DNA from: Bradymonadia bacterium
Lineage (GTDB): Bacteria > Myxococcota_A > Bradymonadia > UBA7976 > UBA1532
Direction: 5' to 3'
Assembly: GCA_046290225.1 (NCBI GenBank)
Contig: JBKAGE010000039.1
Location: forward strand, 118,144-182,143
DNA: 64,000 bases
Shown here: positions 26,947 to 53,940 of the stretch, piece by piece
Layout of the letters: the number at the start of each line of letters is the position of its first letter
Position numbering within the stretch: position 1 is the first letter of the stretch
Notes under the pieces: generated by a model
The model's database searches: none
The model's input: the letters and a program-made list of their open reading frames with translations, nothing else
Told to the model about the DNA's origin: nothing
Program-made: the position numbers and the translations under genes

Positions 26947-29900
26947 TCATGGCCCATCCTGCTCTGAGTTCGGTGCCTCGGCGTCGAGGCGGAGCCTCAG
27001 GTCGTCGGCAATTCTCTGAGGCAGAGGCGCCCACACCGAGCCGCGCTCTTCGCCGAGATCATCGTCGAGCCGTTCTGCCTCCATGGCGTCATCCACGACA
27101 CGGTGACCGTCAACCGCGTACTCGCCGCCCATCGTGACCTCGAAGATGTGGGCGCGACCGTGGACGACCCGGAACCGGTGCTCGTCGTACGTGCCGGCGA
27201 TGTATGGGACGGCGACGTCGAGCGAGCAGTCCCCGTCTCCGTTTCCGCTTCGCTGAAGGCGCTCGGTCTTGCTGCCTATGCGGTCAACTCGCCCGGTTCG
27301 CTGCTCGAGGGTGGCCGGGTTCCACGGCAGGTCGTGGTGAACGACGTGCCGACACTCGCGGTGCAGGTCGATGCCCTCCTGGCCGACAGTCGTCACGATG
27401 AGGACCTCCGGCACAAGAGGCGTGTTGAAGCCCATGAATAGCCGGTCTCGCTCAGAGCTGGCGACGGATCCAGTGACGCGGGTGACGACATCGCGGTTCC
27501 GGCTCGCGTCCTCGTAGGCGGCGATCTGCTCTTCGAGCCCGACCGCCTTCTGCAGCGTCTCCAGGTAGGCCTCGAACCGCTCGCGTGCCGACTCACCAGC
27601 AGCGGGGGGCGACTCGTACCGACGGTGGATGAGCGTGGTCCAGTCGTCGTCGGCCGCATCGTCGTCGACGTCGGGCCTCGCGGTCGGATCGTCGAGGATG
27701 AAGCGGGCGAGGAAGCCGGGAGACCGGACCAGGCGCCGGAGCATTCGGGCGGCCAGCGCCCTCAATCGGGCAGGCAGCTCGGCGAGCGCTGCGGCGTGCC
27801 ATCGGGTGAGCAGACTCGGGACATCCACCGAGCCGTCACGGAGATATGGGGCCAGGACCGCCTGACCAGCACGCCCCCTGAGGACGTCGGTCCAGGCGGC
27901 CACGTCCTCGGACCGCGCGGTGTCGCCAGCCGCCTCCATGTCCTCATCGTCAGGCAATGCCTCAACTTCAGCCTCACGCAGAACGCCCTCGACGACCACA
28001 CGCCGACGCGCCGGCCAGTCTGGGGCCGAGATGAACGCGATGGCGTCCTCGACAGTCTCAGCAAGACGAAGAGGTGCAAGGACCTCCCCGAGCCAGGCCC
28101 GCCCGGCATCGGAGCACTCCCAGCGAGCGACCAGCGCTTGTTCGACGGCCGCGAGGACGCGTCGTCGGTCAAAGCGGCTACGATCGCGAGGTGGACCACC
28201 GAGTGCGAGCCGGGCTGCTATCTCCTGGATGTCGCGCTTCCGCAGAGCGAGCTTCCGCGGCACCCGCCCTCGGCTACCCGCCAGGGGGTGGTCTTGAAAG
28301 AGCAGGAAGACCGTCTGGCGGTAGTTGTAGAGCCGCCTCTGGAAGTTCTTGAGGCGCAGATCCAGCTCTTCGGGGCGGCATTTGAAGGCCGCGGTCAGCA
28401 CGGCTGTGCTGTGAGCGTCGATCCGTCGGTTCACGGCGGTACGGACAGCGTCGACGGTGGCGATGTTGAAGCAGAACACCAGGGTCTTGTCGCCCTGAAG
28501 CCACGCTCGGAACGCCCGCTCTGCGGTCACGGCGACCTTCGGGTGCTCATGGCTCTCGCCGTTGACCGCTCGCTGGACGAGCCGGAGGTAGCGCGCCGCT
28601 TCTGGACTTCGTCCCGGCAGCATCCTGCGGAGCTCCCCCTCACGGAAGAAAGCGTAGGACCCACCGAGGTCGGCGCCGAGGCTGGTCGAACCGCGGCCAT
28701 CCTTCTGTTCCTGCACCGCTCGCATCATCAGGTAGTGCACGAGCTCGGCGTCGCCGTTCACGTCCAGGCCCGGCCTCCACCTGAGCGCGCTTCCTCGCGC
28801 GCTGGGGGCATCGGCTTCGGGCGCGGCCTCGCGTCCGACCCACCAGGCCCGGTGGGACACGTCGCGCCGGTGGCGCAGCAGGAACGGCCTGAGGCTCAGA
28901 CCAAGGCGGGTGTGAGCGTCGCGGACGCTCAGCGCGGCACCGACCGCGCGCTGGAGGCGCGGCGGCAGCCCCGCCGCTCTCCCCGAATCCCCGTTCCTCG
29001 GCCAGGCCGACTCGAGATCGTCGAGGTCGCTGGGCGCAACCTCCGCCCATGCAGCGCGAAGAGTGTCCCCCGCGCTCCCAGCAGCCCGCAGGTCGGCGTC
29101 CAGAGAGGCGACCTGTTCATCGAGGAAGGCGGTTCGCTCCCCCGACAACGCAATGCAACGGCGGAGGTTGAGCACGGAGATGAGCTCGTGTGGCCCCAGC
29201 TGGAATGGTGTTGCGGACAGCCCCAGAAGCCGATCGATCCGCAGCCCGAGCGTGTGCTGGAACCGCCACCAGCTCGTCGGGTGGTTCTTCCAGTTGTGGA
29301 TCTCGTCCACGATGACGAGCGGAAGGCTGTGCGGCACGGTCTGCCCGAGCGCCGCCCGGCACAGCTCGCGAATGTCTTGCCAGAAGGAAGAACGCTTGCT
29401 GCGACCGTTTCGGATCCGCTTCCACGAGTCGCGCAGGCGGTCGCACAGCCAAGGGTCCATCCGCTCGAGCCGGCGCCACGCACCGCGAACCTGTGCGTCG
29501 CCGAAGCCAACCTCGTGCGTGCCCTGGGCGTGCTCCCAGATCGCCGTCGAACGCCTCAAGTCCAGGTTCTTCCGCGTCGCGTGAGTGGGCCAGTCGTCCA
29601 AGAGCTGGAGGCGCTGGTCCATGGACAGACCGAAGCCGTCCATGTGGAGAAGGGAGTGGATCGCGGCCAGCCGCGCGGTGTCGAGCCGGTGGAGCCTCGC
29701 CGAGAACGCCGGCATGCGAGCGATGACAAGCGTCGGACGGCGTAGTCGTAGCGCGTGCGCGAGCTCGTGCGGCGTCGAGGCCGACTTCACATCGAATCCA
29801 AGGCCCGCTGGCGCGACGAGCTTCACGAACCGCTCAGCCTCACGTCGCCACTTCCGAAAGAGCGCGTGGGCATGCGGCGTCACCACCAGCACCGGGCCCG

Positions 29901-30162
29901 TGGCCAGTCCGGCGGCCTTCCGTTGGTGTAGAACCGACCACGCTACGCCCAAGGCCACGAACGTCTTTCCCAGCCCCACCTCGTCAGCAAGCAGGACCAT
30001 CTCCCGGCGCTGCTCGTCATCGTCGTCGTAGAGCCGCTGCAGGATCGCGTCGATCGTTCGCTCCTGCCTCCCGGCAGCAGCCTCAACGGCGCCGGGGTTG
30101 CCGTCCCCGAGCGCTGATCTGAGCGAGCGCCTGAGATCCAGTCCGGCAGGCCGTTCGATCAT
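26947..30162 (-). CDS. SF2 (SNF2-like) helicase/ATPase, defence-associated
   Basis: LADEVGLGKT, VDEIH, LSATP, EGIDLH, WNPATLEQRTGRVDR; ATG 30162 overlaps the upstream stop (ATGA). Confidence 0.9.
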   Translation of the reverse strand: MIERPAGLDLRRSLRSALGDGNPGAVEAAAGRQERTIDAILQRLYDDDDEQRREMVLLADEVGLGKTFVALGVAWSVLHQRKAAGLATGPVLVVTPHAHALFRKWRREAERFVKLVAPAGLGFDVKSASTPHELAHALRLRRPTLVIARMPAFSARLHRLDTARLAAIHSLLHMDGFGLSMDQRLQLLDDWPTHATRKNLDLRRSTAIWEHAQGTHEVGFGDAQVRGAWRRLERMDPWLCDRLRDSWKRIRNGRSKRSSFWQDIRELCRAALGQTVPHSLPLVIVDEIHNWKNHPTSWWRFQHTLGLRIDRLLGLSATPFQLGPHELISVLNLRRCIALSGERTAFLDEQVASLDADLRAAGSAGDTLRAAWAEVAPSDLDDLESAWPRNGDSGRAAGLPPRLQRAVGAALSVRDAHTRLGLSLRPFLLRHRRDVSHRAWWVGREAAPEADAPSARGSALRWRPGLDVNGDAELVHYLMMRAVQEQKDGRGSTSLGADLGGSYAFFREGELRRMLPGRSPEAARYLRLVQRAVNGESHEHPKVAVTAERAFRAWLQGDKTLVFCFNIATVDAVRTAVNRRIDAHSTAVLTAAFKCRPEELDLRLKNFQRRLYNYRQTVFLLFQDHPLAGSRGRVPRKLALRKRDIQEIAARLALGGPPRDRSRFDRRRVLAAVEQALVARWECSDAGRAWLGEVLAPLRLAETVEDAIAFISAPDWPARRRVVVEGVLREAEVEALPDDEDMEAAGDTARSEDVAAWTDVLRGRAGQAVLAPYLRDGSVDVPSLLTRWHAAALAELPARLRALAARMLRRLVRSPGFLARFILDDPTARPDVDDDAADDDWTTLIHRRYESPPAAGESARERFEAYLETLQKAVGLEEQIAAYEDASRNRDVVTRVTGSVASSERDRLFMGFNTPLVPEVLIVTTVGQEGIDLHRECRHVVHHDLPWNPATLEQRTGRVDRIGSKTERLQRSGNGDGDCSLDVAVPYIAGTYDEHRFRVVHGRAHIFEVTMGGEYAVDGHRVVDDAMEAERLDDDLGEERGSVWAPLPQRIADDLRLRLDAEAPNSEQDGP

Positions 30163-32282
30163 GGCGTGCCTCGATGCATGTCGAGGTAGGTGCGGACGAT
30201 GGCGGTCCGGTCTTGGTCCGGGAGGTCGGCGGTGGCCTCCGCGAGCAGCGTGCCCACTTCGGCGACAGCCTGGGCTCGCAGGGATTCGGTGACACCGTCC
30301 GCCAGCTCGGGCAACGGGACACACTGGAGCAGGCGGTGCAGCTCGGCCAATTGGAACGCGGTGGCAACGGCCGTCTTCTGGGGACGCCCGGGCTGGGGCT
30401 CCCGACGAGCGCGGAGCGCTTCGCGGGCCAGCTCGACCGGAGATCGGTGTCCCAGGAGCGCCGCACGAAGCCCCGTCTCGGTCATCCCGGCATCGGCCAG
30501 ACGGTTGCGTATGCCCGGAAGCGCGTGGACGAAGTCGCGCACTAGGTAGCTGAGGATGTCGCCCGTGAGCGAAGGCGACTCCTGGGCCCCCTTGACCGGG
30601 TCGATGCTGTGTCCGAAGCCCCCGTCCTCGCTCTCGCCAGTCGGGCGCAGGCCCAGGAACCAGGCGATGAGCGACTGCTCGTCCTCGCGTGAGCGGGACT
30701 CGACTACCGGGAAGAGGTGCTTGTCCTCGAAGACGACGGGCACGATGGCGGTGAGCTCGCCCCACGTGACCTCTGCTTCCAGGTCAGGCAGCGCTGGCCA
30801 AGCCCCCCGGTCGGCTTCGGGAAGGTGCTCCATCCACGATGCCCGCAGAGGCGTGGTGGCATGGAAGAACCCATGAGCATCTGACGGTGCCCCTATCGTC
30901 CACGCGTCGAACCACTCCTCCCGATTGAGAAGGCGAGAGCGGATGTCACGCATCCGAATGACTACCTCTGGAGGCCACTCTGCCGCATCGCCCTCGAGGA
31001 CCAGCTCGTCCCTTCGAGCTCGGAGCGAGACGATGAATGTCGGCCAGCCGACGCCGTCGTCCCCGTCGAAGGGCGTGGGCTCGACCACGAAGTCTTCGGG
31101 CGCGCGGGTCACCTTGCGCCACGCGGTCCCGAAGGACAGCACTGCCGTCAAACCAGCAGCTTCCTTCTTCGGCAGCGCCCACATCAGGCCCGCTTCGGCA
31201 TTGCTGCTGCTCACCAGGCCCATGCCCTTGCGGGTGAGGTTGAACGAGCCGATCGCCAGGCGCGTGTGCTTACTCCCTTCGACGAGCAGCGCCTTGGCGT
31301 GCAGCGAGCGCTGACCATCAGCCTTGGGCGCGCGACGGGCGGCCACCTCATCGAACTCCCCCTCGTCGTCCTCGTCGGTCGCCGTGCATCCGTACCCAGG
31401 GTCGGCCGCGGCGACCTCGACGGACGCGCCCGCCGTCAGGAGCGCTCGCACGAGACCGGCCGGGATCACCGGGCGCGCCCGTCCCTTCTCGTCGAGGTCA
31501 GCGGGACCGATGAGGCGCACCGTCTTCCAGTTGCCACCACACAGCCTCCGCAGCGCTGTGGCCACGTCCGATAGGTCGTCGCCCGCCGGCCAGAACGGAC
31601 TGGAGATGGTCACCCGGGACACCCGGTCTCCCTGGGACGCAAGGGGCGGGAACCCGGCTTCCGATGGAAGCCCGACGAAGCGCAGCTGCTCAACTCGCCG
31701 CGGTGCCGGGCGGTTCTTGAAGACCGCCTTGATATCTCGGAGCTGGCGCGTCACCTGTTCGGTCGTTTCGCCGACCAGACCTTCGAGCCAGGACACCGCG
31801 TCGCGCACTGCGGTCGCAGCTTCGGCGGCGGCCCCGGGCGCATCGTCGATGGCAGCGCCGACCTCGATGTTGCTTCGGAATCCCGGGCTGGTGAGGTTGG
31901 CAGAGCCTACGACCAGTCGCACGACCTGACTTGTTGGCTCTGGCGCTGCGGGCGAGACGAACCGCAGTATCGCCACTTTGGCATGCAGCTTCGGGTAGCG
32001 CCCCTCCGGGATGGGAACGAGATCAATCCGCGGCGAGCGACGCAGACCGGCCTGATACCGGCCGGGGTGGAAGAACACCGACACCTCGGTGTCCTGCAGC
32101 GCTCGTTCGAGCTCCAAGCGAAACTCCCTCCCTCGTGCCGCCGGGAGTCGCAGGTCCAGCGCAACGGGGAGGAGGTCCTCCTCGAGGAAGTCCGCCTGCA
32201 GCTCATAGGTGGTCGCCACAGCGCTGGCGAGCCGGTAGCCCTGCGGGGGCTCCCACAACTCGAGAAGTCGACGCGCCTTCAC
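30159..32282 (-). CDS. phospholipase D superfamily protein (putative nuclease)
   Basis: LHAKV..GSANLT and LHAKA..GSFNLT half-sites; GTG start overlaps the upstream stop. Confidence 0.85.
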   Translation of the reverse strand: MKARRLLELWEPPQGYRLASAVATTYELQADFLEEDLLPVALDLRLPAARGREFRLELERALQDTEVSVFFHPGRYQAGLRRSPRIDLVPIPEGRYPKLHAKVAILRFVSPAAPEPTSQVVRLVVGSANLTSPGFRSNIEVGAAIDDAPGAAAEAATAVRDAVSWLEGLVGETTEQVTRQLRDIKAVFKNRPAPRRVEQLRFVGLPSEAGFPPLASQGDRVSRVTISSPFWPAGDDLSDVATALRRLCGGNWKTVRLIGPADLDEKGRARPVIPAGLVRALLTAGASVEVAAADPGYGCTATDEDDEGEFDEVAARRAPKADGQRSLHAKALLVEGSKHTRLAIGSFNLTRKGMGLVSSSNAEAGLMWALPKKEAAGLTAVLSFGTAWRKVTRAPEDFVVEPTPFDGDDGVGWPTFIVSLRARRDELVLEGDAAEWPPEVVIRMRDIRSRLLNREEWFDAWTIGAPSDAHGFFHATTPLRASWMEHLPEADRGAWPALPDLEAEVTWGELTAIVPVVFEDKHLFPVVESRSREDEQSLIAWFLGLRPTGESEDGGFGHSIDPVKGAQESPSLTGDILSYLVRDFVHALPGIRNRLADAGMTETGLRAALLGHRSPVELAREALRARREPQPGRPQKTAVATAFQLAELHRLLQCVPLPELADGVTESLRAQAVAEVGTLLAEATADLPDQDRTAIVRTYLDMHRGTP

Positions 32283-33607
32283 GATGCAGCCTCCCACGCC
32301 CCTGCCTCTCGGAGCATGCCGGCGAACTGTTCGATCCGGTACGGATGGGTGAACGCCGAGGCGCTCGGCTTCTCCGGCCTCTCGTCGAGGGCGTACCGAG
32401 GCGCCACGACGACTTCATGCCCGCGAAGCTCAACCCATGGGAGCTTCGGCTGCCTGGAGGCGTCCAGCTTGCCCGCCTGGACCCGTTCGTGATGACGCAC
32501 CAGACCCTCGACCAGGCGAGCTTCGTCAGGGGCCCGAACTGTGGGTTCGACGGCCAGGCTGAAACCGTGAACAGCGTCAGCCACTGCGTGCGGCAGGCTC
32601 GCTCCATGGGCACTCAGCGCGCTCTTCAGTGCGTCGCCCAGGTCCTCGAGCGCGGCAGAGCCGCCGGCGAGACCGATTGACTTCGCCGGTACTGGCCGGC
32701 GGTAGCCGACAGCCCGAATCTGGTCGAAGCGGTAGAGCAGCTCTCGGTGGAGGTTCTCAAACGCGGACGCCACTGCAAGAACGGCAGCGAGGCGTTCCGA
32801 CAGTGGGTCCCGCTCCTTCCGGAGTTGAGCGTTCAGTCCTTGGAAGGTGTCCCCATCGGACGACGTGCCGTCGGTCGCCTGCATCGCCGCGGCCACCTTC
32901 CGGTGTGCGCCTGGCTCCAGAAGGGCGTCGGCCAAGAGACGGCGCTCACGTGTCGTCGCAGCACCGAGGTGGGCGCTCCGCCCCCATTCGACAAGGGCCT
33001 GCTCCGAAAGGCTGGGCGAATCTCCGCGCACGACTCGCAGCAGTGTTCCTCGGTTTGGCGTGCTGCGATGGCGGAGGAAGGCTTCGGCAAGCTCCACTCC
33101 GCGCGGCGTGAGCGCACCCGACTCGTGTTCGACGAGCCCTCCCGCCACCAACGTGACCCAGTACGTGCCGACGCCGCCAACGCCCGCCTGGTTGCGGAGC
33201 ATCGGGAACGCCGGTGACCGAATCCCCTCCGAAACCGCACGGCGGACGTAGGACACGCCGCGAAGTTGTCGCCAGGCCGGGCAGTCCTCGGTCACGCCCT
33301 CCGCCTTGGCGTAGGTGCCGGTGGCGAGCGCAACCAGCCTCTCCCAGGCGAGGACTTGTTGTCTCCGTGCTCGCCCCGCGCGTCCACCGGTGGGCGCATC
33401 GGGCACGTCGTCGAGAAGTCGGAGCCCGGCGCAGACCCACGAGAGGTAGCGAACCCGGGACGTGATCGTCGTGACGCCGGGGAGCAGGGTCGTGGCGATG
33501 GCCGTGAACGGCCTGAGCGCTCCAAGCGGATCAATGCTACCGGAGCTGGCCGCTCGAGGATCCCAGGCAGAAACGAACGGGAGTGGCAGGCCGGCGTTAG
33601 TTGTCAC
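32279..33607 (-). CDS. hypothetical defence protein (DUF6361-like N-terminus)
   Basis: DPLG..LLPGVTTITSRVRY N-terminal pattern; first gene of the PLD/helicase trio. Confidence 0.65.
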   Translation of the reverse strand: MTTNAGLPLPFVSAWDPRAASSGSIDPLGALRPFTAIATTLLPGVTTITSRVRYLSWVCAGLRLLDDVPDAPTGGRAGRARRQQVLAWERLVALATGTYAKAEGVTEDCPAWRQLRGVSYVRRAVSEGIRSPAFPMLRNQAGVGGVGTYWVTLVAGGLVEHESGALTPRGVELAEAFLRHRSTPNRGTLLRVVRGDSPSLSEQALVEWGRSAHLGAATTRERRLLADALLEPGAHRKVAAAMQATDGTSSDGDTFQGLNAQLRKERDPLSERLAAVLAVASAFENLHRELLYRFDQIRAVGYRRPVPAKSIGLAGGSAALEDLGDALKSALSAHGASLPHAVADAVHGFSLAVEPTVRAPDEARLVEGLVRHHERVQAGKLDASRQPKLPWVELRGHEVVVAPRYALDERPEKPSASAFTHPYRIEQFAGMLREAGAWEAAS

Positions 33608-33649: not shown

Positions 33650-35404
33650 TCATTGCTCGGCCTCGAAGTAGTCCTCGGTCAACCCTGGATTCGGCGCGAA
33701 CTCGCGCCACTGAATCATGATCTCGCCAACCTCCATAGGCTCACTGCCGATTCGCTCGAGCGCGGCGTTCACCCGGTCGCACTGGGATTCGTTCAGGTAG
33801 AAGCGATGCCGGTCCAGCCAGTTGATCGCGGGGTGGTAGTTGTCGCGGCTTGATGACTCCAGTTGGGCGAGCTGCTCCTCGATCGTACTTCGCGCAACTC
33901 GGGGCTTGAGCACCGGGATCACGTCGACGGTCCGATCGTCGGACACGACGACCGCTAGCCGAGGTACCTCAGACGCCCCCACGTACCGAATGCCCGAGTT
34001 GTACCTGGAACCTCGAGATGGCGTGCACTCGGGTCGCGCAGGACCATCGAGAATCACGCCGATCGCGTGGCAGACGCAGTGGGGGTCCACGATAATCGTG
34101 CCGTCGATGTCACTCACACGACGATAGAGCGAAGGGCTGAGCTTCACCGGCGAAACGCGCGTGCCTTGCCCACGCAGGCGCTCGGCTTCGTCAGCTGCAT
34201 CCCGTGCAACAACCAACATGCTTCCGTGGCGTTGAGCAACCGCCGTATCGAATAGCGCTGTGAACGCATCAACGTCGTCGTCTGTTGCCTCGTCGAAGAG
34301 CCGGCGGAAGGTGTCAACGAGTCGGTTCCGGGGAAACCGCTCTTGCGGCAATGCTGGGACTCCGTACCGGCTGACGAGCAAGACCTGCTCGCCGCAGCAG
34401 AGGCTCCAGTGGAAGTGGTCGTGGAACTCGACCATGAAGACATTCTGGGTTGCCATCGGGTCGACACCGTCGGCGACAGTTCCGAGGCCCAGGATGTTCT
34501 CGCAGTCCGCGATGAGCGCGGTCTCCGCCGAGGCCATCTGGAGCACCTTTCGCGCCCATCGGGGTTGCCGGAACGGCACCGGCTCCGAGAGCTCAAGGTG
34601 GACATCGACCGCCGACCCGCTGGGGTTCGCCAGCAGCATGCGGCCTGTGCCCTCGGTGCCCTCGTACATCAATGAGGAGATTAAGTTGAATCGCTCGAAG
34701 AGGTCGGCCCCCCCATAGTTCCGTGTTCCGATGGAAAGCACCGGTGTGTGCATGAAGTCTGTCGCTGCTCGACGGACGATCTCCTCCGCCGAGCGAGAGC
34801 GACCACTGAGAAGACGGCCAGGGTCGGGACGCAGCAGCTCGTCGTAGGCTTCGTTCAAGACCTGGGCCACAGCGGAGTGAATCAGGCTGGGGCTTCCGTG
34901 GAAGTGTCCATCTGTGATCGGCTCGTTTAGAGGCGGGAACCGATGGAAGATCGCCTCCGGTAGCTGCAGGACCGGGACGACGTAGTAGCCTTCCACCGGA
35001 GCCGGACGGCCAGCAAACGAGCGGACCTCGTTGTCGCTGTCGTAGGTTGCGAGCGCGGCCTGCACCGCCTTCCGTGCCGAGTCGCGGCGGATGTTCTCCG
35101 GCTTGTCGCGCATGCTCGGCTCGTCGCCGTAGTACATGTTCTGCAACGGGTGCTCGCGCACCTCGGCTTCGATAGCGGCCAGCAAACCGTCGAAGAGCTC
35201 CAGGGGCCACTTTCCATCCTCGGGTTCGACGCACACTTCGTGTGGCTTCGATTCCCCTGGGACCGTCGCCCCGACCACAAGGCATTCCGCTCCGGCATCC
35301 TCGACCCCGAGCTCGGCCATGACGTTGTTCATCCGACGCTCGACGTCGTATCTGTAGTGCAGCTGGTACCCCCACATGAATAGCGTGATCGTCTTTCGGC
35401 TCAT
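33650..35404 (-). CDS. DisA_N/diadenylate cyclase (DAC)-domain protein with long N-terminal extension
   Basis: HGSMLVV, DIDGTIIVD (DGA-like), GVILDG, RGSRYNS (RHR-like), VVVSDDRTV. Confidence 0.8.
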   Translation of the reverse strand: MSRKTITLFMWGYQLHYRYDVERRMNNVMAELGVEDAGAECLVVGATVPGESKPHEVCVEPEDGKWPLELFDGLLAAIEAEVREHPLQNMYYGDEPSMRDKPENIRRDSARKAVQAALATYDSDNEVRSFAGRPAPVEGYYVVPVLQLPEAIFHRFPPLNEPITDGHFHGSPSLIHSAVAQVLNEAYDELLRPDPGRLLSGRSRSAEEIVRRAATDFMHTPVLSIGTRNYGGADLFERFNLISSLMYEGTEGTGRMLLANPSGSAVDVHLELSEPVPFRQPRWARKVLQMASAETALIADCENILGLGTVADGVDPMATQNVFMVEFHDHFHWSLCCGEQVLLVSRYGVPALPQERFPRNRLVDTFRRLFDEATDDDVDAFTALFDTAVAQRHGSMLVVARDAADEAERLRGQGTRVSPVKLSPSLYRRVSDIDGTIIVDPHCVCHAIGVILDGPARPECTPSRGSRYNSGIRYVGASEVPRLAVVVSDDRTVDVIPVLKPRVARSTIEEQLAQLESSSRDNYHPAINWLDRHRFYLNESQCDRVNAALERIGSEPMEVGEIMIQWREFAPNPGLTEDYFEAEQ

Positions 35405-36132
35405 GCTTCCTCCGTGGGGGCCTCAGCGGACTTTGGAGACGCGCCTGCCTCAGTTTCAGCAGTGGCCTCGGGCTCATCACTGCCTGAGGCAGCGTGGCCG
35501 CCGTGCTTGGTCGTCTCAAAGGCCTTGTCAGCTTCTGCGAAGCTGCCGTGTTGCTCGTCTACTCGGAGCCGACCCTGAAGCTCACCTGCACTGTTGCGGT
35601 CCGTCCAGTACTGGCCTACCAAGCCGGTTGCTGGGTCGCCTTCGACGTCTAGGAGGATCGCGCCGTAGTGGATGGGGCTACGGTCACGTACGGCGAGCTG
35701 AGGCTCGTTGCGGTACACGCCCGAGATTCTGTACACACCATCCTCCGCGCGATGAACTGACGACCCGACAAGCTCGGAGCTCGACTCGTCGGTCATCAGC
35801 CGCAGGCTCAGATGGGAATAGGTCTGGCGAACAACGAGGTAGCCGGTCTTCTCCGGCACCACCTCGCCCGTCGCCGGGTCTTGCCAGTTGCTCTTCAGAC
35901 TCACCCGCCAAGTACCGTTCAGGTTGGGTTTCTCAACGAACCACCCGTGTAGCCATCGCCACTTCCATGCCCAGTGTTGAAAGGCTAGGAGGAGCAGCGA
36001 CATGGAGGTAATGGTCGCGGACATCGACGTCAGCCATTCGATCTTCACCGCGACGCCGCTGACAAGGAGCACCAGCCCGCTGATGACCGCTGCCGCGATC
36101 AGTATCGTGCTCAAGTGAAGTCGAGAGATCAT
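35401..36132 (-). CDS. cap15: CBASS Cap15-like effector (2TM plus beta-barrel, S-2TMbeta)
   Basis: two TM helices, then PNLNGTW, VRQT, TDESSS, YRNEP, HYG, GQYWTDR..G; ATGA overlap with the cyclase. Confidence 0.88.
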   Translation of the reverse strand: MISRLHLSTILIAAAVISGLVLLVSGVAVKIEWLTSMSATITSMSLLLLAFQHWAWKWRWLHGWFVEKPNLNGTWRVSLKSNWQDPATGEVVPEKTGYLVVRQTYSHLSLRLMTDESSSELVGSSVHRAEDGVYRISGVYRNEPQLAVRDRSPIHYGAILLDVEGDPATGLVGQYWTDRNSAGELQGRLRVDEQHGSFAEADKAFETTKHGGHAASGSDEPEATAETEAGASPKSAEAPTEEA

Positions 36133-37055
36133 CCGAGCACCCCCACGTACGTCCAAGCGCCCACGACGAACTGTCTCGCCTGCTCTCGCGTCCACGGTTG
36201 ACTGGGCCGAAACAGGTACTTGAGCTCGTTGACCTCGCCCCACTCGCGGCACGTCTCGTCCTTCTCGGTGGCGGAGTAGAGGTAGGCCAGGATGCGTGCC
36301 ACATCGTCGGTGTATGCCGCGCTTCCGAAGTGCTTGTCGGGCACGTTCCAAACAAGGCACTCGATCAGGTATGAGGGAATCGGCGCCGCCTCGGCTCTTC
36401 CGGCTTGCTCCATCTCGTTGCGCAGCCGTTTGAGGATTCGGACCATCTTCTTGTATCGCGTGCCAGTATCCTGGTTCTTGTTGGTGCCGTTGCGGTAGTT
36501 CTGCTCCGGCCAGTTCACGATGCGTCCGCCGTTGTCTGGGTGCAGCTCCGTCCCGGACAGGTAGCGGACCTGGCCCAACACGTCGCGGTAGTACCGGCGA
36601 TGCTCGAATGTCGGAACGACATCCGCGTCGACGCGGTAGCTGTTCTCGTGGAGGTCGATTGCCTTGTTGCCGCGGGTCACGCTCTTTGCCCCCAGATAGG
36701 CTCGGAGCGCTGCCTCGACGTCGTCCTTGAACTGCCCGTAGGTATAGCTGGCGGTCACGAGCCCCACATCGGCATCGGTGGTCCCATCGGAGTGGTCGGC
36801 GAAGAAGACATCCATGCAGCGAACACACACATCGACGTCGCTGTCGGAGCGCACGTTTGTCCCGTTGCGGTACGAGCCCTGGGCAAAGACCTCTATGTTC
36901 CTGGTAGCGAAGCCGACGTAGGAGCGCACCGCGTTCCGCACGACACTGACCGCGTTGTCACACCGGTCCGTTTCGGTTGTCGAAGGCGGGCGGCCCCACG
37001 AACGAAAGTCTTGTTCCCAGTCTCGTCCCATCACTGCTCTCGTCGAGATACTCAT
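36129..37055 (-). CDS. cdnE: CBASS CD-NTase (CdnE-like cyclic dinucleotide synthase)
   Basis: QGSYRNGTNVRSDSDVD, DADVVP, IVNWPEQNY.NG..KN, YKKMVRILK, PSYLIECLVWN; alternative start at 37031. Confidence 0.9.
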   Translation of the reverse strand: MSISTRAVMGRDWEQDFRSWGRPPSTTETDRCDNAVSVVRNAVRSYVGFATRNIEVFAQGSYRNGTNVRSDSDVDVCVRCMDVFFADHSDGTTDADVGLVTASYTYGQFKDDVEAALRAYLGAKSVTRGNKAIDLHENSYRVDADVVPTFEHRRYYRDVLGQVRYLSGTELHPDNGGRIVNWPEQNYRNGTNKNQDTGTRYKKMVRILKRLRNEMEQAGRAEAAPIPSYLIECLVWNVPDKHFGSAAYTDDVARILAYLYSATEKDETCREWGEVNELKYLFRPSQPWTREQARQFVVGAWTYVGVLG

Positions 37056-37063
37056 CGCGTCAC

Positions 37064-37795
37064 CTACAGCCGGAAGTTGATGCCTTCGCGGCGAAGCCGC
37101 TCCTTGCGTGTTTCGTGGTCGGGCTGGATCATGCCGAGAAGCTTCCAGAAACGTGCCGAGTGGTCGGCGACGCGCAGGTGGCAGACCTCGTGAGCGACGA
37201 CGTAGTCGACGAGTGACATCGGCCCCATGACGATGCGCCAGTTGAACCTAAGCTCGCCCTTCGACGTGCAGCTGCCCCAGCGCTTCGCCTGGTCCCGGAC
37301 CAGCACCTTTGGCTCATCTACTCCGAGGCGCTCGGCGTACAGCCGCACGCGCTCGGGGATGCGCTTCGCGGCAAGTCCCTTGTACCAGGCCGTCAGTGCC
37401 GAACGAACGAGCGTTGCCTGCGTGCCGGCTTCGGGGATCGTCGTCTCCAACCATCCGCCGCGAAGCTTGACGATCGCCGACTCGCAGCCCGCGCGCCGAT
37501 TGACGAGGAGTCGGTATTGTCGTCCGAGGTAGCTGAACGACTCGCCGCTGACGAACTCGCGAGGAGGTGGGGGCGGCCCCAGCTCTTCGAACTCGGCCAG
37601 CCGTTGCACGACCCAAGCTCCCTTCTCGCGCACCACGTCATCGATCGCTTGGCCGTCGAGTTCCTCCGGCGCCAGGACCAGCACGCCATCTGCGAGGTCG
37701 ACGGCGATCGTCACCGTGCTTCGGCGCGCGCTTCTGTGGACGACGAAGGGTATCGTGCTCGTCCCGAAGCTGATGGATCGCTCAGTACCCATCAT
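37064..37795 (-). CDS. M48/YgjP-like metallopeptidase associated with type I R-M
   Basis: RWGSC, DYVVAHEVCHL..H...FW. Confidence 0.9.
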   Translation of the reverse strand: MMGTERSISFGTSTIPFVVHRSARRSTVTIAVDLADGVLVLAPEELDGQAIDDVVREKGAWVVQRLAEFEELGPPPPPREFVSGESFSYLGRQYRLLVNRRAGCESAIVKLRGGWLETTIPEAGTQATLVRSALTAWYKGLAAKRIPERVRLYAERLGVDEPKVLVRDQAKRWGSCTSKGELRFNWRIVMGPMSLVDYVVAHEVCHLRVADHSARFWKLLGMIQPDHETRKERLRREGINFRL

Positions 37796-40770
37796 CGCTT
37801 CACCAACTGCACGCGAGCAAGGTCGAGAATCTTCGCGGTCATCGGCTCGATGGCCGCGCGATCGAACCCCGCCGCCTTCAGCCGCTTCTTCACCGCCATG
37901 CGCATGCGGCGCTGCACATCGTCCTTGAGGTGCCAGTCCACAACCGTGAGCCCCTCCAGCGACTCCAGGACGTCGCGAGCAAGGTCCCGGCGCGCCATCT
38001 CTGGAAGCAGGCCATCGGGCGCCTCGCCGTCGACGGCGGCCTGAGCGAAGACCTCGAAGATCGCGTACCCCGGCTCGGACAGACCGAGTTCATCAGCGCG
38101 AGCTGGGATGTCGCGTATGTCGAGAACGATGTGAGTCAGCAGGGACAGCTGCTCCGCAGCGGTGATCTGCTCCTCGCGTCGCTGCTGGATGATTCGCTCC
38201 AGAGTTTCCGACAGTGACTGAAACACTACGGGGTTCTCGTCCATCCGCACGTTGATCTCGTGCCGGATGGCGTGCTCCATCTCGCTCGCGCGAGCCTCGT
38301 CCGACCCAAGCTTTTTCACCTCCTCCTCGAATTCGGCGGCGAGGATCGAGATGGGCTCGACAAGCCCCTGCACATCGGTCGTGGTGATGTGCTGCTCGAT
38401 GAGGGCGCGCACCTTGGCTCGGCATCCTGTCAGGTCGAACTGGTCATCGCGGAACCGCACCCGAGCGGCGTTGCGCACTTTGCCGAGCCACTTGAGGTCA
38501 TCGACGAACGGCAGCGCGCTGGGATCCGGAAGGAGCATGTCGAGGGACTGGGAGAAGCGCCGAAACGCCATCTCGAACTCCGCCCTGACGTCTTCGGGCT
38601 CCAACACTTTGAGACAGGCTTCCAGGTCGGAGTGGTCGACCCGTTGAAAGAAGCGCATCACCCGGCGATGCCTGGATTCCAGCTGCGGGAGCTCGGATGT
38701 CCTCGGCTTCATCGCCCCCTGCACGTCGCTCGGGGAAAAGATAGCTAGGGCCTCCTCGAGGTGATGGGCGACACCCCAGTAGTCGACGACCAGACCGAAG
38801 TCCTTGTTGTCGGCCGTCCGGTTCACACGGGCGATAGCCTGCAGGAGAGTGTGCTCACGCAGCGATGAGTCGAGGTACATCACCTGCTCAACTGGGGCAT
38901 CGAAGCCCGTGAGCAGCATGTCGCACACCACGATGATGGAAAGAGGGTCGTCGGGATCCTTGAAGCGCTCGATGAGGGTGCGCTGTTCGTCCTTGCTCGT
39001 CTTCCACTTGACCAGGTGTTCCGGGTCGTTGTGGGACGTGGACATGATGATCGCCGACGGCGGCGCTCCCAGTCTGTCGAGCGTTTCCTTGTACGTGACC
39101 GCAGCTTCTCGAGAGCAAGCGACGACCTGAGCCTTGAATCCGTTGGGCCGGATGTGTTGCTCGAAGTGCTCGATGATGTCGAGACAGATGCGTTCGACGC
39201 GGCGGGGCGCCCCAGCGATGGCCTCGGCCGTGGCATAGCGCGATTTGATTGCCTCGCGCTCCTCATCGCTCCGGTCCTTGAAATAGCGGCCAAACAGGGC
39301 GTCGATGCTCGTGCCGAGCACCTGGTCCATCGGCTGCCTCATCTCGTAGAAGATGGGGACGGTGGCTTCGTCCTGGACAGCCTGCTCGATGGTGTAGGTG
39401 TGGATGTAGCGCCCAAACGTCTGGAAGGTGCTCTTGTCCTTCTTGTCGATCGGGGTTCCGGTGAAACCGAGGAAGCAGGCGTTGGGGAGAGCACGGCGCA
39501 TGTTGGCAGCGAGGCTGCGGTACTGAGTTCGGTGAGCCTCATCGACCATCACAAAGATGTTCTCGGCCCGGTTGAGGACCGGGTGACGGTTCGAAGAGGA
39601 CTCCTGGAACTTCTGCACGGTGGTCATCACCGTCTGGCCCGTGTCCTTCGACAGCAACGACCGCAGGTGCTTGACGCTCTTGGCTTGCTCCGGATTGGGG
39701 AATCCGCACCGCTTGAACGTCGTCGAGATCTGTCGGTCGAGATCGCGGCGATCCGTGACCACGACGAGGGTCGGGTTCTCGGTCGAGGGCAGACGCCGAA
39801 GCTTCACGGCCAGGTAGACCATGGTGAGAGACTTGCCCGAGCCCTGGGTGTGCCACACCACGCCGCCTCGCTCGTTTGGTCGCGGCGCGGCAGTGATCCG
39901 CTCAAGCGCTCGGTTCACCGCGATGAATTGCTGGTAGCGGGCGAGCTTCTTGACGGTCTTGGAACCCTCGACCTCGAAGACGATGAAGTTGCGGATGAGG
40001 TCGAGGAGGTTCTCGGGCCGGAACACGCCCCAAAGGAGCGCCTCTTGAGCACGAGGGATCCTTCCGATTTCACGCTGAAGTTCATCGAGGGTTAGCGGGA
40101 AGGGGACCTTCCAGTACCCCCAGAATCGCCCCGGCGTTGCGGTCGTGGCGTACTTCGCCGCTTCTCCGCACGTGCTGACGAGAATCTGCGCGGTGTGAAA
40201 CAGCCGCGGGGCGCCAAGGTTGCGAAACCCGTCGGTGAGCTCTTGATACCGGGTCATCTGCTTGATGCCCTCGTCGAGAGGGGCTCGGATAGTCGGGCTC
40301 TTGCACTCGACTATCCCAATCGGGATGCCGTTCACGAACACCACGAGGTCCGGGATGATCGTCTTCTTCCCACCCTGGACCCGATACTGGCGAGTGAACA
40401 CGAGCTCGTTGTTGGTAGGGGTTTCGAAGTCGATATACCGGACGGTCTGCCCCTGGAGTCCGTGGCCGAGGTCCTGCGGCAGCGAGATGTTGTGGACGAG
40501 GGCGGTGTGAACCTTCTCGTTGGCATCGATCAGCCCGGTCGCGGCGACATGCGAAAGGTGTTGGACCGCATTCTGGACGTTGACGTCATCGATCCAGGGA
40601 TTGAGCCGCCGCAGGGCGGCCTGCAGGCGGCCGATGAGGAGGGGCTCCGACTGGGACGCCCGCTCGGCATCGAGTTCATCAGCCGGGACGAAGGTGTATC
40701 CCAACCGCTCGAGCAAGTCGGCGGCGGGTTCTTCCGCGAGGTGGATCTCGTTCCAGTCGGTGGTGCTCAT
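37792..40770 (-). CDS. hsdR: type I restriction enzyme subunit R
   Basis: PD..ECK nuclease, WHTQGSGKS, DEAHR, GFTGTP, MLLTGFDAP, QAIARVNR. Confidence 0.97.
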   Translation of the reverse strand: MSTTDWNEIHLAEEPAADLLERLGYTFVPADELDAERASQSEPLLIGRLQAALRRLNPWIDDVNVQNAVQHLSHVAATGLIDANEKVHTALVHNISLPQDLGHGLQGQTVRYIDFETPTNNELVFTRQYRVQGGKKTIIPDLVVFVNGIPIGIVECKSPTIRAPLDEGIKQMTRYQELTDGFRNLGAPRLFHTAQILVSTCGEAAKYATTATPGRFWGYWKVPFPLTLDELQREIGRIPRAQEALLWGVFRPENLLDLIRNFIVFEVEGSKTVKKLARYQQFIAVNRALERITAAPRPNERGGVVWHTQGSGKSLTMVYLAVKLRRLPSTENPTLVVVTDRRDLDRQISTTFKRCGFPNPEQAKSVKHLRSLLSKDTGQTVMTTVQKFQESSSNRHPVLNRAENIFVMVDEAHRTQYRSLAANMRRALPNACFLGFTGTPIDKKDKSTFQTFGRYIHTYTIEQAVQDEATVPIFYEMRQPMDQVLGTSIDALFGRYFKDRSDEEREAIKSRYATAEAIAGAPRRVERICLDIIEHFEQHIRPNGFKAQVVACSREAAVTYKETLDRLGAPPSAIIMSTSHNDPEHLVKWKTSKDEQRTLIERFKDPDDPLSIIVVCDMLLTGFDAPVEQVMYLDSSLREHTLLQAIARVNRTADNKDFGLVVDYWGVAHHLEEALAIFSPSDVQGAMKPRTSELPQLESRHRRVMRFFQRVDHSDLEACLKVLEPEDVRAEFEMAFRRFSQSLDMLLPDPSALPFVDDLKWLGKVRNAARVRFRDDQFDLTGCRAKVRALIEQHITTTDVQGLVEPISILAAEFEEEVKKLGSDEARASEMEHAIRHEINVRMDENPVVFQSLSETLERIIQQRREEQITAAEQLSLLTHIVLDIRDIPARADELGLSEPGYAIFEVFAQAAVDGEAPDGLLPEMARRDLARDVLESLEGLTVVDWHLKDDVQRRMRMAVKKRLKAAGFDRAAIEPMTAKILDLARVQLVKR

Positions 40771-42045
40771 TCGCTCACCCTCCCGTCGGTGTCGTTGAGC
40801 TTGGCGATCAGCTCGGCAGGCATGCGGACGCGGCCGCTCAGGAGCTCCTTGGCGAGGCCGCGCTTCATCTCGGTGAGCTCAGCGAGGTAGCGGGTCTCGG
40901 CTTCGATCCGGGTGTCGAAGGCTCGGCCCACGTCAGCGATGACCTCCTGCTCCTCGGGTGGGGGAAGCAGGATGCGTATCTTCTTGAACACCGGCATGTA
41001 GATGTCCGGCAGCACGGAGCCGGCCTGCAGTCTCTTCCACTCGCGGTCCATGTGCCGGAACACCTGAACCAGGTAGTCCGGTTGGAGCTTCGGACCGCAG
41101 ACCCAGTTGGCGAAGTGCTGGCTGGTGGCCATCTCTCGACCCATCTTGGAGCAGAGTCCTACAGAGGCCGTTCGGAGCAGAACCACGGTGCCCTTGGGGA
41201 GCAGGCGGGCCGAGGAGTTTGCAAGGCCGAGCGTGCCGATCGTCTGCGTTGTGTCTCTGATCTCAAGGCCCCGCAGTCCCTCTGAATCAGTGAGGGAGAT
41301 CCAAGGGATCTCTCCGTCCCAGTACTCTGGGCGCTTGCGGCTGGGCGTGTGGCCGCTCTCGAGGCGTGCGATCTTGGTTAGCTGGACGAGCTGCCAGTGC
41401 GCCGGGATCTCCTCGATGTTCGGAGCCACACGACCCATGGGCCAAGTGCTCGGTAGGGGCTGCATCTCGGTGCGGAAGCGAGGGTGACCGAGGGTCAGCA
41501 GCTCCCGCATGCTTTGGTGTTTCGAGATCCGAAGCTGTTGGATGAGGGCCTCGGTCGATGCAATGGCGCCGGCCACTCGATCGATGCATGCGCCGATCGC
41601 GACCTGCTCATCGAGTGGGGGGAAGGTGACCCGAGAGGCCAGGAACTCGGCCGGCGACACGCGCTGTGCCTTTCGCGAGCCGATGGCGCTTCCGCGGTAG
41701 CGCTTGTAGAAGGCCGGGCGCGAGACGTGTGCCACCAGCCAAGTCGGGTCGACTTCTCCACGAATGTCGAAGCACGGCAGATCGGAGGTGCTCTCGAAGC
41801 CGTCAAGCTCAGGCGGAATGAGTCCGAAAGCACCGTTGAGGAAGTCGAGCTTGCTGTAGATGAACTGGCCCGCCTTTCGACGGTAGTAGACCGTGGCAGC
41901 GCTTCCGCGGTCGTTGACCTTCGGCACGACGCCTTTGCCATATAGGCGGACGGTGAGCTTCTGGGCGGTCGCTCCGTTGGTTCCTGGCAGACGGCTCTCC
42001 TTGAGGACGTCACGGAAGCGGCCTAGCCTCCAAGTGCGCGGCAGA

Positions 42046-42056
<11 letters not shown>
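40767..42056 (-). CDS. hsdS: type I R-M specificity subunit S
   Basis: two TRDs, each followed by PP..EQ..I conserved helices; sits between hsdM and hsdR. Confidence 0.92.
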
Positions 42057-43560
<1,504 letters not shown>

Positions 43561-43576
43561 GGTGGTCTCCTTGAGA

Positions 43577-43969
43577 TCAGGCGTGCCAGATGGTTCCAGT
43601 AAGCCCGAGCTCGTCGAGCCAGGCGCGGGCGTCTTGCTGCGCCGCGGAGGGCACAGCAAGCACGAGGGTGAGGTCGTTTTGAGTCGCGTAGGCGTCGAAG
43701 AGGCGAAGCTGGCTCTCGGCGTGCGCGGTGCGCAACGACTCCGCCGTTTCGGCCTCAACGATGAATCCGCCACCGAGGGCATCTGGTCGGTGGCCGCTCG
43801 TGTCTCCGTCCCAATAGATGACTGGGGGCTGGTCGTGTCCGGGGAGGTCAGCCTTGATGACCGCAGACCTCACTTCGTCCTCGATCGTGTTCACCGCCAA
43901 TCGAACGAGGCGCTGGTGCTCCGCGCCCGCGGCCGCGTTGCGGCGAAATCCCTGAAGACTGCTACTCAT
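43577..43969 (-). CDS. small hypothetical protein, possible PD-(D/E)xK fold
   Basis: H..HRPD..IVEAET..Q pattern; AGGAG SD; inside the R-M operon. Confidence 0.6.
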   Translation of the reverse strand: MSSSLQGFRRNAAAGAEHQRLVRLAVNTIEDEVRSAVIKADLPGHDQPPVIYWDGDTSGHRPDALGGGFIVEAETAESLRTAHAESQLRLFDAYATQNDLTLVLAVPSAAQQDARAWLDELGLTGTIWHA

Positions 43970-44594
43970 CGTCATCTCCTTCGGACTGTTCGAGCCCCGT
44001 CAAAAGGCGGGCGGCGACCTCGAGCCCGACCTGCCGCCGCAGCTCCGCGGCCTCGATCGCGGCCTGATAGCTCGCGTCCGTCGCTTCGATCAGGGCGACG
44101 ATTTGCTGCTGCACCTCGAGCGGAGGAACGGGCACGGGAATCCCCGCAACGTCCTTGCGACCGAGCGCGAGCGTCATGGCCGACGACCGGCTCCGGGAGA
44201 GGACCTCATGCTCGCCGCGCGGCGTATGGAGCCACGCAACCAACACCGGAGCGAGAAGGTCGCCACGTGGGCGGAGGATCAGCAGGTTCGCGCTTGCAAT
44301 CGCTCCGGCCGCGCCGGCTCCGACCATGACGCTGCGGAATGAGGTGCCGCGGCAGGTGATCAGGACATCGCCCTTGCGCACCTTGTAGCGGACGAGACGG
44401 GTGGCCCCCGGTAGCCGAACTTCGTCAAGACCGCTGAGGCCAGACAGGAGTCCGGTGTCACCGAGGTCGCGGATGTTGACCACGCGGTAGGGCCGCCCGT
44501 CCTCGGACGCGCGACGGCTGAGCGGGAGCCCGGTGAGGATCTCGCTAACCGTCCCCAGGGGGCGTGTCGGCCATGTCGTGTTGTCGAGGTTCAT
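43962..44594 (-). CDS. single-TRD HsdS-like protein
   Basis: PLGTVSEILTG, KGDVLIT, IPVPVPPLEVQQQIV. Confidence 0.8.
   Translation of the reverse strand: MNLDNTTWPTRPLGTVSEILTGLPLSRRASEDGRPYRVVNIRDLGDTGLLSGLSGLDEVRLPGATRLVRYKVRKGDVLITCRGTSFRSVMVGAGAAGAIASANLLILRPRGDLLAPVLVAWLHTPRGEHEVLSRSRSSAMTLALGRKDVAGIPVPVPPLEVQQQIVALIEATDASYQAAIEAAELRRQVGLEVAARLLTGLEQSEGDDDE

Positions 44595-45098: not shown

Positions 45099-45102
<4 letters not shown>
44713..45102 (-). CDS. small HTH protein accompanying the serine recombinase
   Basis: YADVARRHGLTRARLTQLMNLLLLAPDIQE; ATGA overlap with the recombinase stop. Confidence 0.8.
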
Positions 45103-46760
<1,658 letters not shown>

Positions 46761-46805
46761 CCGTCTTCCCCGGCGTCGCCGCGCTTGCGCTTCTTCCGTT
46801 GGGCG

Positions 46806-46858
<53 letters not shown>

Positions 46859-47061
46859 GGACGACGAGAAGGCGAAGTCGCTCGTGCGAGCGATGCTGGA
46901 GGCGGGGCTGGCCGAGCGGCTCTGACGACGCTCTCCTCGCGTAGACATGGAGGTGCGGCACGGGTAATATCACCCGTGGCCGGGTCGATACGCCCGACAG
47001 TCGCGCACCCTTCGCTCTCGCGAAAGCGCGGAGGGCGTGGTGTTCTTTCAATGGAGGTCTG

Positions 47062-47078
47062 TTGGCACAGCCCTCGCT
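47062..47078 (+). promoter_or_regulatory. sigma-54 (-24/-12) promoter
   Basis: TTGGCACAGCCCTCGCT: GG at 47064-65 and GC at 47076-77 with exact N10 spacing, about 70 nt before the helicase ATG. Confidence 0.7.
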
Positions 47079-47146
47079 CTTACGTCCGGTCGCACAGGTC
47101 GCCCAGCTTTCAGGGTGGCCCCTGACCAACGAGGACGTGAGAGACG

Positions 47147-49759: not shown

Positions 49760-50868
49760 ACCTCAACATCAACCTCAAGCGCTCCCTGTCAGTCAGCTGT
49801 TGGCGGGTCGTCGGCCAGGTGGCCCGGGCGTCGAAGCGAGCCGAGCTCATCCCGATCCTCCTCCGAGTTCGCGACCAAGATCAGACCAACGCCGAGGACA
49901 TCGCCTCGCACCTCTTCTTCGAAGCCCGCTCGCGAAGGGTGGTGGCCGAGCGGCTCCTGCGGATCGCGACGACCTACAAGCTGCTCAGCGAGAGCCGTGG
50001 CTGGTTCTCGCTCACCGATGAGGGGCGCGTGGCCATCGAGAGCGAGCAGGTGTTCGTGCCGGAACACGGAACCTGGACCATCTGGGCGAGCGAGGACCCG
50101 CTGCTGGGTTCGCGCGTACTGCGTGTCGAGGCGTGGCAAGAGCCCTCCGCCTACGACGAGGTGTGGGGCAAGGAGCGCGACGCAGAGCGAAACTTCGAGC
50201 GCTTGCCCAGGTGGCTGAGCGAGGTTGTCGGCCACGTCCAGCGCCCATGCGCTGGCGACGGCCACAGCGTCCGAGTCGATGAGCTCGAGGCGCAAGGAGA
50301 GGTGGTCTCGGCCGAGGCCGGCCTGACCATCGAGTGGAGCGTCAGCTCGGGCCGGCTGCGGGTCACGGGCACCCTCGGCGGCAGGAAGGTCCACACGGAC
50401 CTGGATCCACCCACGCGGTCGAGAAGCGGGGTCTGGCAAGAGCTCCTTCAGCACGAGGGCCTTTGGCCCAGCTGGGACGAGACGAGGGGGGCGCTCCTCG
50501 TCGGATTCGAAGACACCGAGGCCGCCGAGCGCGAGTCCATGGCTCGCACCCTGCGGATCGAACGACCACGGCTCGAGGGCCTCGGCTCCTTCGATGCGAT
50601 CTCGGTCGGCGGGGTGGGCCTAGCGGCGCGCTCCCAGCCCGACGCCCAGCGGTGGGCAAAGTGGCGGCTCGAGTCGCGGATTCAGGACTACGCCACACAG
50701 CGGCGCATGGATGAGTGGGCGCAAGCCGCCGCGGCGCCATTCACAGACCATCGAATCGATCTTCCGAGTCGAGGTGACCTCGCGCGTGAAGCCTGGAGTG
50801 CGCGAGAGGAGCTTCCCTCCCCACGGACCTGGCACCTCGTTGCCGCAGAAGACTGGAGGCTGCGATGA
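49756..50868 (+). CDS. hypothetical protein with N-terminal winged-helix-like segment
   Basis: GGAGGT SD, ATGA overlaps at both ends; AEDIASHL..LLS..FSLTDEG pattern. Confidence 0.75.
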   Translation: MNLNINLKRSLSVSCWRVVGQVARASKRAELIPILLRVRDQDQTNAEDIASHLFFEARSRRVVAERLLRIATTYKLLSESRGWFSLTDEGRVAIESEQVFVPEHGTWTIWASEDPLLGSRVLRVEAWQEPSAYDEVWGKERDAERNFERLPRWLSEVVGHVQRPCAGDGHSVRVDELEAQGEVVSAEAGLTIEWSVSSGRLRVTGTLGGRKVHTDLDPPTRSRSGVWQELLQHEGLWPSWDETRGALLVGFEDTEAAERESMARTLRIERPRLEGLGSFDAISVGGVGLAARSQPDAQRWAKWRLESRIQDYATQRRMDEWAQAAAAPFTDHRIDLPSRGDLAREAWSAREELPSPRTWHLVAAEDWRLR

Positions 50869-53809: not shown

Positions 53810-53854
53810 CCTCGAAGACGCAGAAAATCCGCGCCCGAGGTGTCCCACTCTCAC

Positions 53855-53905
<51 letters not shown>

Positions 53906-53906
53906 T

Positions 53907-53940
<34 letters not shown>

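Follow-up and report, generated by a model that had tools for sequence, protein, structure and literature searches.

DS-2 is a validated two-cyclase CBASS that consists of a patatin effector, a CD-NTase and the diadenylate cyclase (DAC) CdaG/DS-2C (DefensePredictor, PMC13092281). The DS-2 rows retrieved from Table S7 of that paper concern a single phage, Bas1. Against it, the -log(EOP) values of wild-type DS-2 were 4.0 and 2.2, and the mutants D433A (0.18 and 0.48) and R468A (-0.37 and 0) abolished defence. The DS-2 mutants listed there are DAC mutants, and CBASS-gene mutants are not among them. Two DS-2C proteins produced c-di-AMP in vitro from all four NTPs, as detected by LC-MS (10.64898/2026.08.10.743927). 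CdaG beside a CD-NTase and a 2TM-beta effector is already in print in a 2026 preprint (PMC13640721, legend of Fig 4g and text), which leaves open whether the effector reads both cyclase products. Both 2026 preprints (PMC13640721; 10.64898/2026.08.10.743927) treat as open what DS-2C/CdaG cyclases do in CBASS.

Other relatives share part of this composition. In Panoptoo/PanDA (10.64898/2026.08.10.743927; PMC13640721) and in Panoptes, a DAC-fold enzyme (mCpol in Panoptes) is found beside an S-2TMbeta effector, as in the locus described here. Unlike this locus, Panoptoo/PanDA are described as two-gene systems with a constitutive synthase of ~150 aa, without a CD-NTase of their own and with an effector that is toxic alone. 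According to a review (PMC13712596), what Cap15 reads is uridine-containing dinucleotides.

Organization of the operon and its surroundings

The window analysed in this study is a stretch of 64,000 nucleotides from a Bradymonadia bacterium (contig JBKAGE010000039.1). Within what is likely an integrated defence island, three genes lie on the minus strand: cdnE (37055-36129), cap15 (36132-35401) and a gene of 584 aa, cdaG (35404-33650). The stop/start overlaps read from the sequence were ATGA in both cases, at 36129..36132 between cdnE and cap15 and at 35401..35404 between cap15 and cdaG, which confirmed the layout given by the initial annotation. Upstream, on the same strand and ending 8 bp before cdnE, Pfam and PADLOC identified type I restriction-modification (RM) genes and a gene for a YgjP-like metallopeptidase (37064..44594). 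Downstream of cdaG, three genes (26947..33607, minus strand; Pfam, PADLOC) with weak likeness to ZacA/ZacB/ZacC of PADLOC encode an unknown protein, a PLD protein and an SNF2 helicase. With the flanks made up of these RM, YgjP and Zac-like genes, no Cap2/Cap3 or other ancillary gene was found by Pfam and PADLOC to adjoin the operon, and the DAC is the sole extra gene beside the CdnE-Cap15 pair. The matches returned by a promoter and terminator scan of the operon were at chance level only. The region also has a serine recombinase, and a tRNA-Asn gene is located near its end.

The CdnE cyclase

CdnE (36129..37055, minus strand, 308 aa) was assigned to the clade-E CD-NTases by PADLOC, structure match and motifs. 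It matched the PADLOC cyclase PDLC00801 with an E value of 5.5e-127, and its nearest solved structure was the cyclic dipyrimidine synthase 7x4f (E 2.1e-90); ClCdnE and EfCdnE were also matched. The alignment showed that CdnE retains QGS59-61, D73, D75, D145, the lid Asn181, E274 and Q286-x-W288, of which the last aligned with Gln274/Trp276 of LpCdnE, as N181 did with its lid residue. The lid Asn, the E/Q pair, the (R/Q)xW motif and the Cap15 partner are shared with the type I CBASS of LpCdnE, ClCdnE and EfCdnE, whereas the operons of these three are drawn without a DAC (PMC10442399). In the same paper, the lid Asn and (R/Q)xW motifs are tied to double-pyrimidine selection, and the motifs of the window protein predict a cyclic di-pyrimidine (c-di-UMP) synthase. 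The claim that CdnE and Cap15 form a type I CBASS was supported, as an intact CD-NTase stands beside an S-2TMbeta effector without ancillary Cap2/Cap3.

The QxW motif was present in every full-length CdnE listed for the CdnE-Cap15-DAC subtype and absent from the patatin-type CdnEs listed. The score of the window CdnE against the DS-2 cyclase model DS2_2 was 200.4 bits, below the cut-off of 350, and its identity to the CdnE of L125, a DS-2-type locus whose three genes all pass the three DS-2 models, was 33%.

The Cap15 effector

The product of cap15 (35401..36132, minus strand) is an S-2TMbeta membrane effector of 243 aa whose acidic tail is variable, as judged by Pfam, PADLOC and the tree. It matched Pfam Cap15_CD_rec (E 5.9e-16) and PADLOC 2TM (E 6e-69), and a profile built from 16 Cap15 relatives retrieved the Cap15 structure 7n34 with an E value of 1.7e-30. 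In a tree of 34 rows, the window Cap15 was sister to L001 and L119 (support 100/98). L119 is a CdnE-Cap15 operon in genome G240 (identities of 58% and 56%), where CdaG was not found by a search whose positive control succeeded in 3/3 cases. On Vibrio plasmids, Cap15 relatives with 37-38% identity are located in two-gene CdnE-Cap15 operons. The identity to two PanE-type proteins (L113 and L128, recognised by an adjoining HDGFH gene of ~148 aa) was 27-28%, and both fell outside the group on long branches, these being the only two PanE rows in the tree. Judged by its sequence, the window Cap15 groups with CdnE-paired, partly DAC-less Cap15s and not with PanE, the effector group of Panoptoo/PanDA.

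These results bear on the suggestion, made in the initial annotation, that the DAC may act on Cap15 as a guard, in the manner of Panoptes, or may set its threshold. In a model of this kind, c-di-AMP made constitutively by the DAC would hold Cap15 off, and phage sponges would release it. PanS-PanE systems are described as pairing a DAC and an S-2TMbeta effector in guard fashion (10.64898/2026.08.10.743927; PMC13640721), and Cap15-DAC pairs without an intact CdnE exist. The genome of the DAC-less sister operon, G240, carries a Pfam-DAC gene of its own, so this operon is not a c-di-AMP-free control. The placement of the window Cap15 with L001 and the CdaG-less L119, far from PanE, speaks against a guard, and so do the two-gene operons of the Vibrio plasmids. 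The other roles offered in the initial annotation, a decoy for phage sponges and an independent defence gene, may hold.

The CdaG/DS-2C diadenylate cyclase

The third gene (cdaG, 33650..35404, minus strand) encodes a protein of 584 aa in which Pfam, NCBIfam and fold comparison resolve DACNG, DACNH and DAC domains and a helical C-terminus. CdaG was reportedly defined by Galperin in 2023, as papers citing that work have it. The architecture DACNG-DACNH-DAC and the family size of about 575 aa agree with the window protein and its AlphaFold2 model (pLDDT 85.4), and NCBIfam NF053872 (DS2_3_antiphage) scored 712.6 bits, above the cut-off of 630. The DAC assignment of the initial annotation was upheld by fold and by NF053872, and the named family, CdaG/DS-2C, had been missed. 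At E 0.01 the protein gave no match to the Pfam model of DAC. Residues 369-498 of the model, the DAC catalytic domain (33911..34300, minus strand; fold and motif alignment), fitted the DAC domains of DacM (Z 13.7, rmsd 2.3, 122 aligned residues) and CdaA (Z 12.9), and a Foldseek search with the model returned DisA (E 1.5e-6); a PDB sequence search with the window DAC returned no relative. DACNG (aa 10-218; 34751..35377, minus strand; Pfam, model pLDDT 91.3) is a putative sensor, for which the best match in fold searches, a roadblock domain with Z 6.3, was no better than background. DACNH spans aa 234-335 (34400..34705, minus strand; Pfam). Neither Pfam nor the fold searches recognised a domain of effector type in CdaG.

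The canonical DGA and RHR motifs are replaced by D434-G435-T436 and R464-G-S-R467-Y-N-S. D434, G435, R464 and R467 were invariant in 18 sequences; the position that corresponds to R468 of DS-2C is approximate. The window DAC and that of L125 share 51% identity, and D434 of the former aligned to D433 of the latter, D433A being the number of the defence-abolishing DS-2C mutant. The 584-aa protein belongs to the CdaG/DS-2C family, and by analogy the window copy is predicted to synthesise c-di-AMP. The host genome separately encodes a membrane DAC with canonical DGA/RHR motifs, whose gene we take to be cdaA, the gene next to it being presumably cdaR. A separate Pfam-DAC gene was present in five of the seven genomes with a CdnE-Cap15-CdaG operon.

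The DAC itself also fits a guard poorly. PanS is a minimal constitutive enzyme that is never found with a housekeeping DAC, whereas CdaG carries additional domains and is accompanied by a separate DAC in those five genomes; the window DAC carries an IDGT motif in 584 aa, in contrast to HDGFH in the PanS-type genes of L113 and L128. The DS-2 DAC mutants lose defence and are not reported as toxic in the DS-2 rows of PMC13092281. As the DAC has several domains, another DAC exists in the host, unrelated effectors stand beside the same family, the Cap15 is not of PanE type and the mutants lose defence, we consider a constitutive brake on Cap15 very unlikely.

DS-2 and the window operon have in common a clade-E CD-NTase, an effector and the same DAC family with its catalytic Asp conserved. 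They differ in the effector (patatin in DS-2, Cap15 here), in gene order (patatin-CdnE-DAC in DS-2, CdnE-Cap15-DAC here) and in the cyclase, which falls below the DS2_2 cut-off and carries QxW in the window. Thus, the operon is a Cap15-type relative of DS-2 and neither strict DS-2 nor Panoptoo/PanDA. The operons of PMC13640721 have the same three components and the DACNG-DACNH-DAC architecture, differ in nothing that legend and text describe, and may be of this very subtype. The layout had been taken as novel, and this view gives way to DS-2 (PMC13092281) and to the CdaG, CD-NTase and 2TM-beta operons of PMC13640721. The window operon adds a Cap15-type case to the CdaG/DS-2C-linked CBASS layouts known in print, a modest discovery because both architecture and question had been published. 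The literature search returned no paper in which a CdnE-Cap15-CdaG operon had been tested for function; the subtype may appear in figures or in bioRxiv supplements.

Linkage of the DAC family to CBASS

Loci were collected from 19 GTDB matches, the best 80 of 568 metagenome matches, a sample of 401 genomes and three of 11 plasmid matches; the metagenome part biases the sample to close relatives of the window DAC. The 104 rows were reduced to 93 with a near-full single-ORF DAC and to 81 representatives at 95% identity. CdnE-Cap15 adjoined the DAC in 12 of the 81, window included, all in the order CdnE-Cap15-DAC and with record titles that span several phyla. The other neighbours were patatin/CdnE (31 representatives), type II Cap2/Cap3 operons (six), Cap15 of another group (four, three of them with a CD-NTase of ~375 aa) and Cap15 only (one). 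No CBASS part was found in 11 representatives with adequate flanks (at least 2.3 kb upstream and 2 kb downstream fetched) and in 16 with short flanks. CBASS-linked DACs of four kinds therefore made up 53/81, where the metagenome part is the best 80 of 568 matches and part of the labels depend on a single incomplete gene; the share is 53/65 without the 16 short-flank rows, whose removal inflates it. For comparison, the DefensePredictor paper gives 15/30 (PMC13092281). The proposed link between the DAC and CBASS is thus real, and the absence of linkage that would have spoken against it was not observed.

We had considered whether the DAC of L064 had switched to a DncV partner of type II and dropped this reading, since the near-identical twin of L064, L067, has patatin-CdnE upstream; L064 was relabelled as DS-2 type, which changes the patatin/CdnE count to 32 and the type II count to five. 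The label of L088 is ambiguous on the same grounds.

In the DAC tree, the CdnE-Cap15 rows lie within one clade of 15 rows (SH-aLRT 98), together with two short rows and a single row of DS-2 type; L035, with a DS-2-type CdnE fragment, nests inside this Cap15 clade. The rows with type II operons or the 375-aa cyclase branch from within the patatin rows. Over nine loci, the identity matrices of DAC and CdnE (rho 0.64) and of DAC and Cap15 (rho 0.70) correlate, which shows co-inheritance, not co-function. Recurrence and co-inheritance led us to reject the idea that the genes share a defence island by chance. In the reverse view, CdnE was matched at E 1e-20 or better in nine of 401 genomes and a full DS2_3 match was present in two of these nine; the DAC is therefore an optional add-on.

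The survey bears on an autonomous role, in which CdaG would sense infection and by itself arrest the cell, through the toxicity of c-di-AMP or the depletion of ATP, and would accompany CBASS as a second, complementary line of defence. The CBASS-less DACs, several of them in RM/BREX islands, include the closest sisters of the CdnE-Cap15 clade. CdnE is deleted or truncated with the DAC intact in three of the 12 loci of the subtype (L003, L009 and L036), these loci having been found via the DAC and so forming a biased set. Three CD-NTase queries returned nothing in G406, G408, G409 and G410, in part without a positive control and in genomes mostly of unknown completeness, and the DS-2 mutants listed in PMC13092281 are likewise DAC-only. 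Against autonomy stand the 53 representatives that adjoin CBASS parts of four kinds, the gene overlaps, the DAC protein in which Pfam and fold searches recognised no effector-like domain, and G407, where a stand-alone DAC is accompanied by three CD-NTase loci elsewhere. We consider this role unlikely but a serious rival of the reading favoured below.

Alternatively, the DAC could sense infection as a second input to Cap15, which its product would then activate as well; this product would be c-di-AMP or, as in PanS, a dinucleotide that contains uridine. The question is raised as open in PMC13640721. Minimal DACs can make cUA (10.64898/2026.08.10.743927), and a different Cap15 binds c-di-AMP according to the DancE preprint (10.64898/2026.10.06.757031). 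Cap15 and DAC are intact where CdnE is lost in L003 and L036, and L068 has DAC and Cap15 only. DG[T/S] was present in 52/53 CBASS-linked DACs and DGA in 9/11 CBASS-less DACs; this association comes down to three independent pairs (sign test p 0.25), and the Fisher test (p 1e-7) was set aside for that reason. On the other side, when supplied with all four NTPs the two DS-2C proteins gave c-di-AMP, patatin and type II operons employ this DAC family too, and host CdaA would leak into a Cap15 activated by c-di-AMP. A second input of this kind seems as unlikely as autonomy and is likewise a serious rival. A broader proposal, which we regard as doubtful, is that one Cap15 reads two unrelated cyclases, the cyclic di-pyrimidine of CdnE and the product of a DG[T/S]-type CdaG (c-di-AMP or cUA). 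This could work as an OR gate fed by two phage sensors, or the two signals could oppose each other on the one effector, which would then fire also when a phage sponge drains the pool.

A possible helper role of the DAC

We tentatively favour, with somewhat less than half of our confidence, a CdnE-Cap15 CBASS in which an infection-gated DAC is a positive and effector-independent helper. CdnE would make a cyclic di-pyrimidine that triggers Cap15, and the DAC would be switched on by infection, possibly with gating through DACNG/DACNH, and would help without going through the Cap15 pocket. We speculate that a c-di-AMP burst occupies phage sponges or nucleases so that the CBASS signal reaches the effector; alternatively, the burst may license the CD-NTase to the same end. 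A positive role is suggested because the DS-2 DAC mutants lose defence, and the existence of D433A and R468A as strains in PMC13092281 argues against a repressor model, which would not predict such strains. Effector independence is suggested because the same DAC family stands beside Cap15, patatin, 375-aa-CD-NTase/Cap15 and type II operons. The QxW motif, which separates the listed CdnEs of this subtype from those of the patatin type, predicts that the signals differ, and the correlated identities of the three genes speak for coupling. The separate host DAC in five of seven genomes would make plain c-di-AMP a poorly insulated Cap15 ligand.

The shielding step is chemically possible because Acb2 accepts c-di-AMP as well as cUU (PMC10312549). 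It is weakened by the search for known sponge and nuclease (anti-CBASS) families, which gave no match among 45 uncharacterised Bas01 proteins in a run without a positive control. The 11 CBASS-less DACs among 81 and the loss of CdnE in three of 12 loci with the DAC intact fit an autonomous DAC and count against the helper, as does the c-di-AMP-binding Cap15 of the DancE preprint. One Bas01 protein of 376 aa had a weak phosphoesterase-like match.

The subtype lends itself well to testing what CdaG does in CBASS, with two cyclases of predicted distinct products (c-di-UMP and c-di-AMP), a soluble ligand-binding barrel in the effector, a close DAC-less sister operon in G240 and natural variants without CdnE. 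Two loci were on viral contigs, one of them a complete CdnE-Cap15-DAC operon.

CdaG variants and their gene neighbourhoods

The DG[T/S] motif was found in 52 of the 53 CdaG diadenylate cyclases (DAC) with CBASS parts in their flanks, whereas 9 of the 11 CBASS-less proteins carried DGA; this association between motif and CBASS linkage was non-significant, with only three independent pairs. In the window, the motif position is aa 434-436 (34097-34105).

Pairs of Cap15 and DAC that lack an intact cdnE were observed at survey loci L003 (5245-7764), L036 (1245-3765), L009 (4901-7758) and L068 (2043-5037; coordinates local to each locus), where this gene is truncated, deleted or fused, or is missing. 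On a Shewanella baltica plasmid (L113, 3444-5730), an IS66-truncated CdnE gene, Cap15 and a PanS-PanE-type pair (minimal DAC plus S-2TMbeta effector) lie in that order, so that two S-2TMbeta genes from different groups adjoin. At L007 (2382-12481), BREX-like methyltransferase and pglZ genes flank an inserted CdaG gene, and three CBASS loci lie at other sites in this genome (L138-L140). A longer protein (about 870 aa frame) encoded on a contig from a viral collection (L142, 3254-5857) was similar to DACNH-DAC and had no DACNG match. The product of phage Bas01 gene 50 (376 aa; L143, 38005-39135) gave a weak metallophosphoesterase-like match (TIGR04123, E 6e-4); degradation of dinucleotides is a conceivable activity for it.

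Other defence-like genes in the window

Downstream of the operon, a three-gene block (26947-33607, minus strand) encodes an unknown protein (442 aa), a PLD protein (707 aa) and an SNF2 helicase (about 1070 aa). The block showed distant similarity to ZacA, ZacB and ZacC in PADLOC (E 1e-4, 1.5e-28 and 3e-33, respectively) and distantly matched PDC-M27 as well; it may represent a divergent member.

In the type I RM cluster, hsdM is preceded (43577-44594, minus strand) by an additional HsdS-like gene with a single domain and by an unknown gene of 132 aa. A serine recombinase gene (minus strand) is followed by AAA helicase, unknown, PLD and sigma54-type ATPase genes (plus strand), and this run (45099-54195) ends at tRNA-Asn (54122-54195); it probably represents the margin of an integrated element with another defence-like block.
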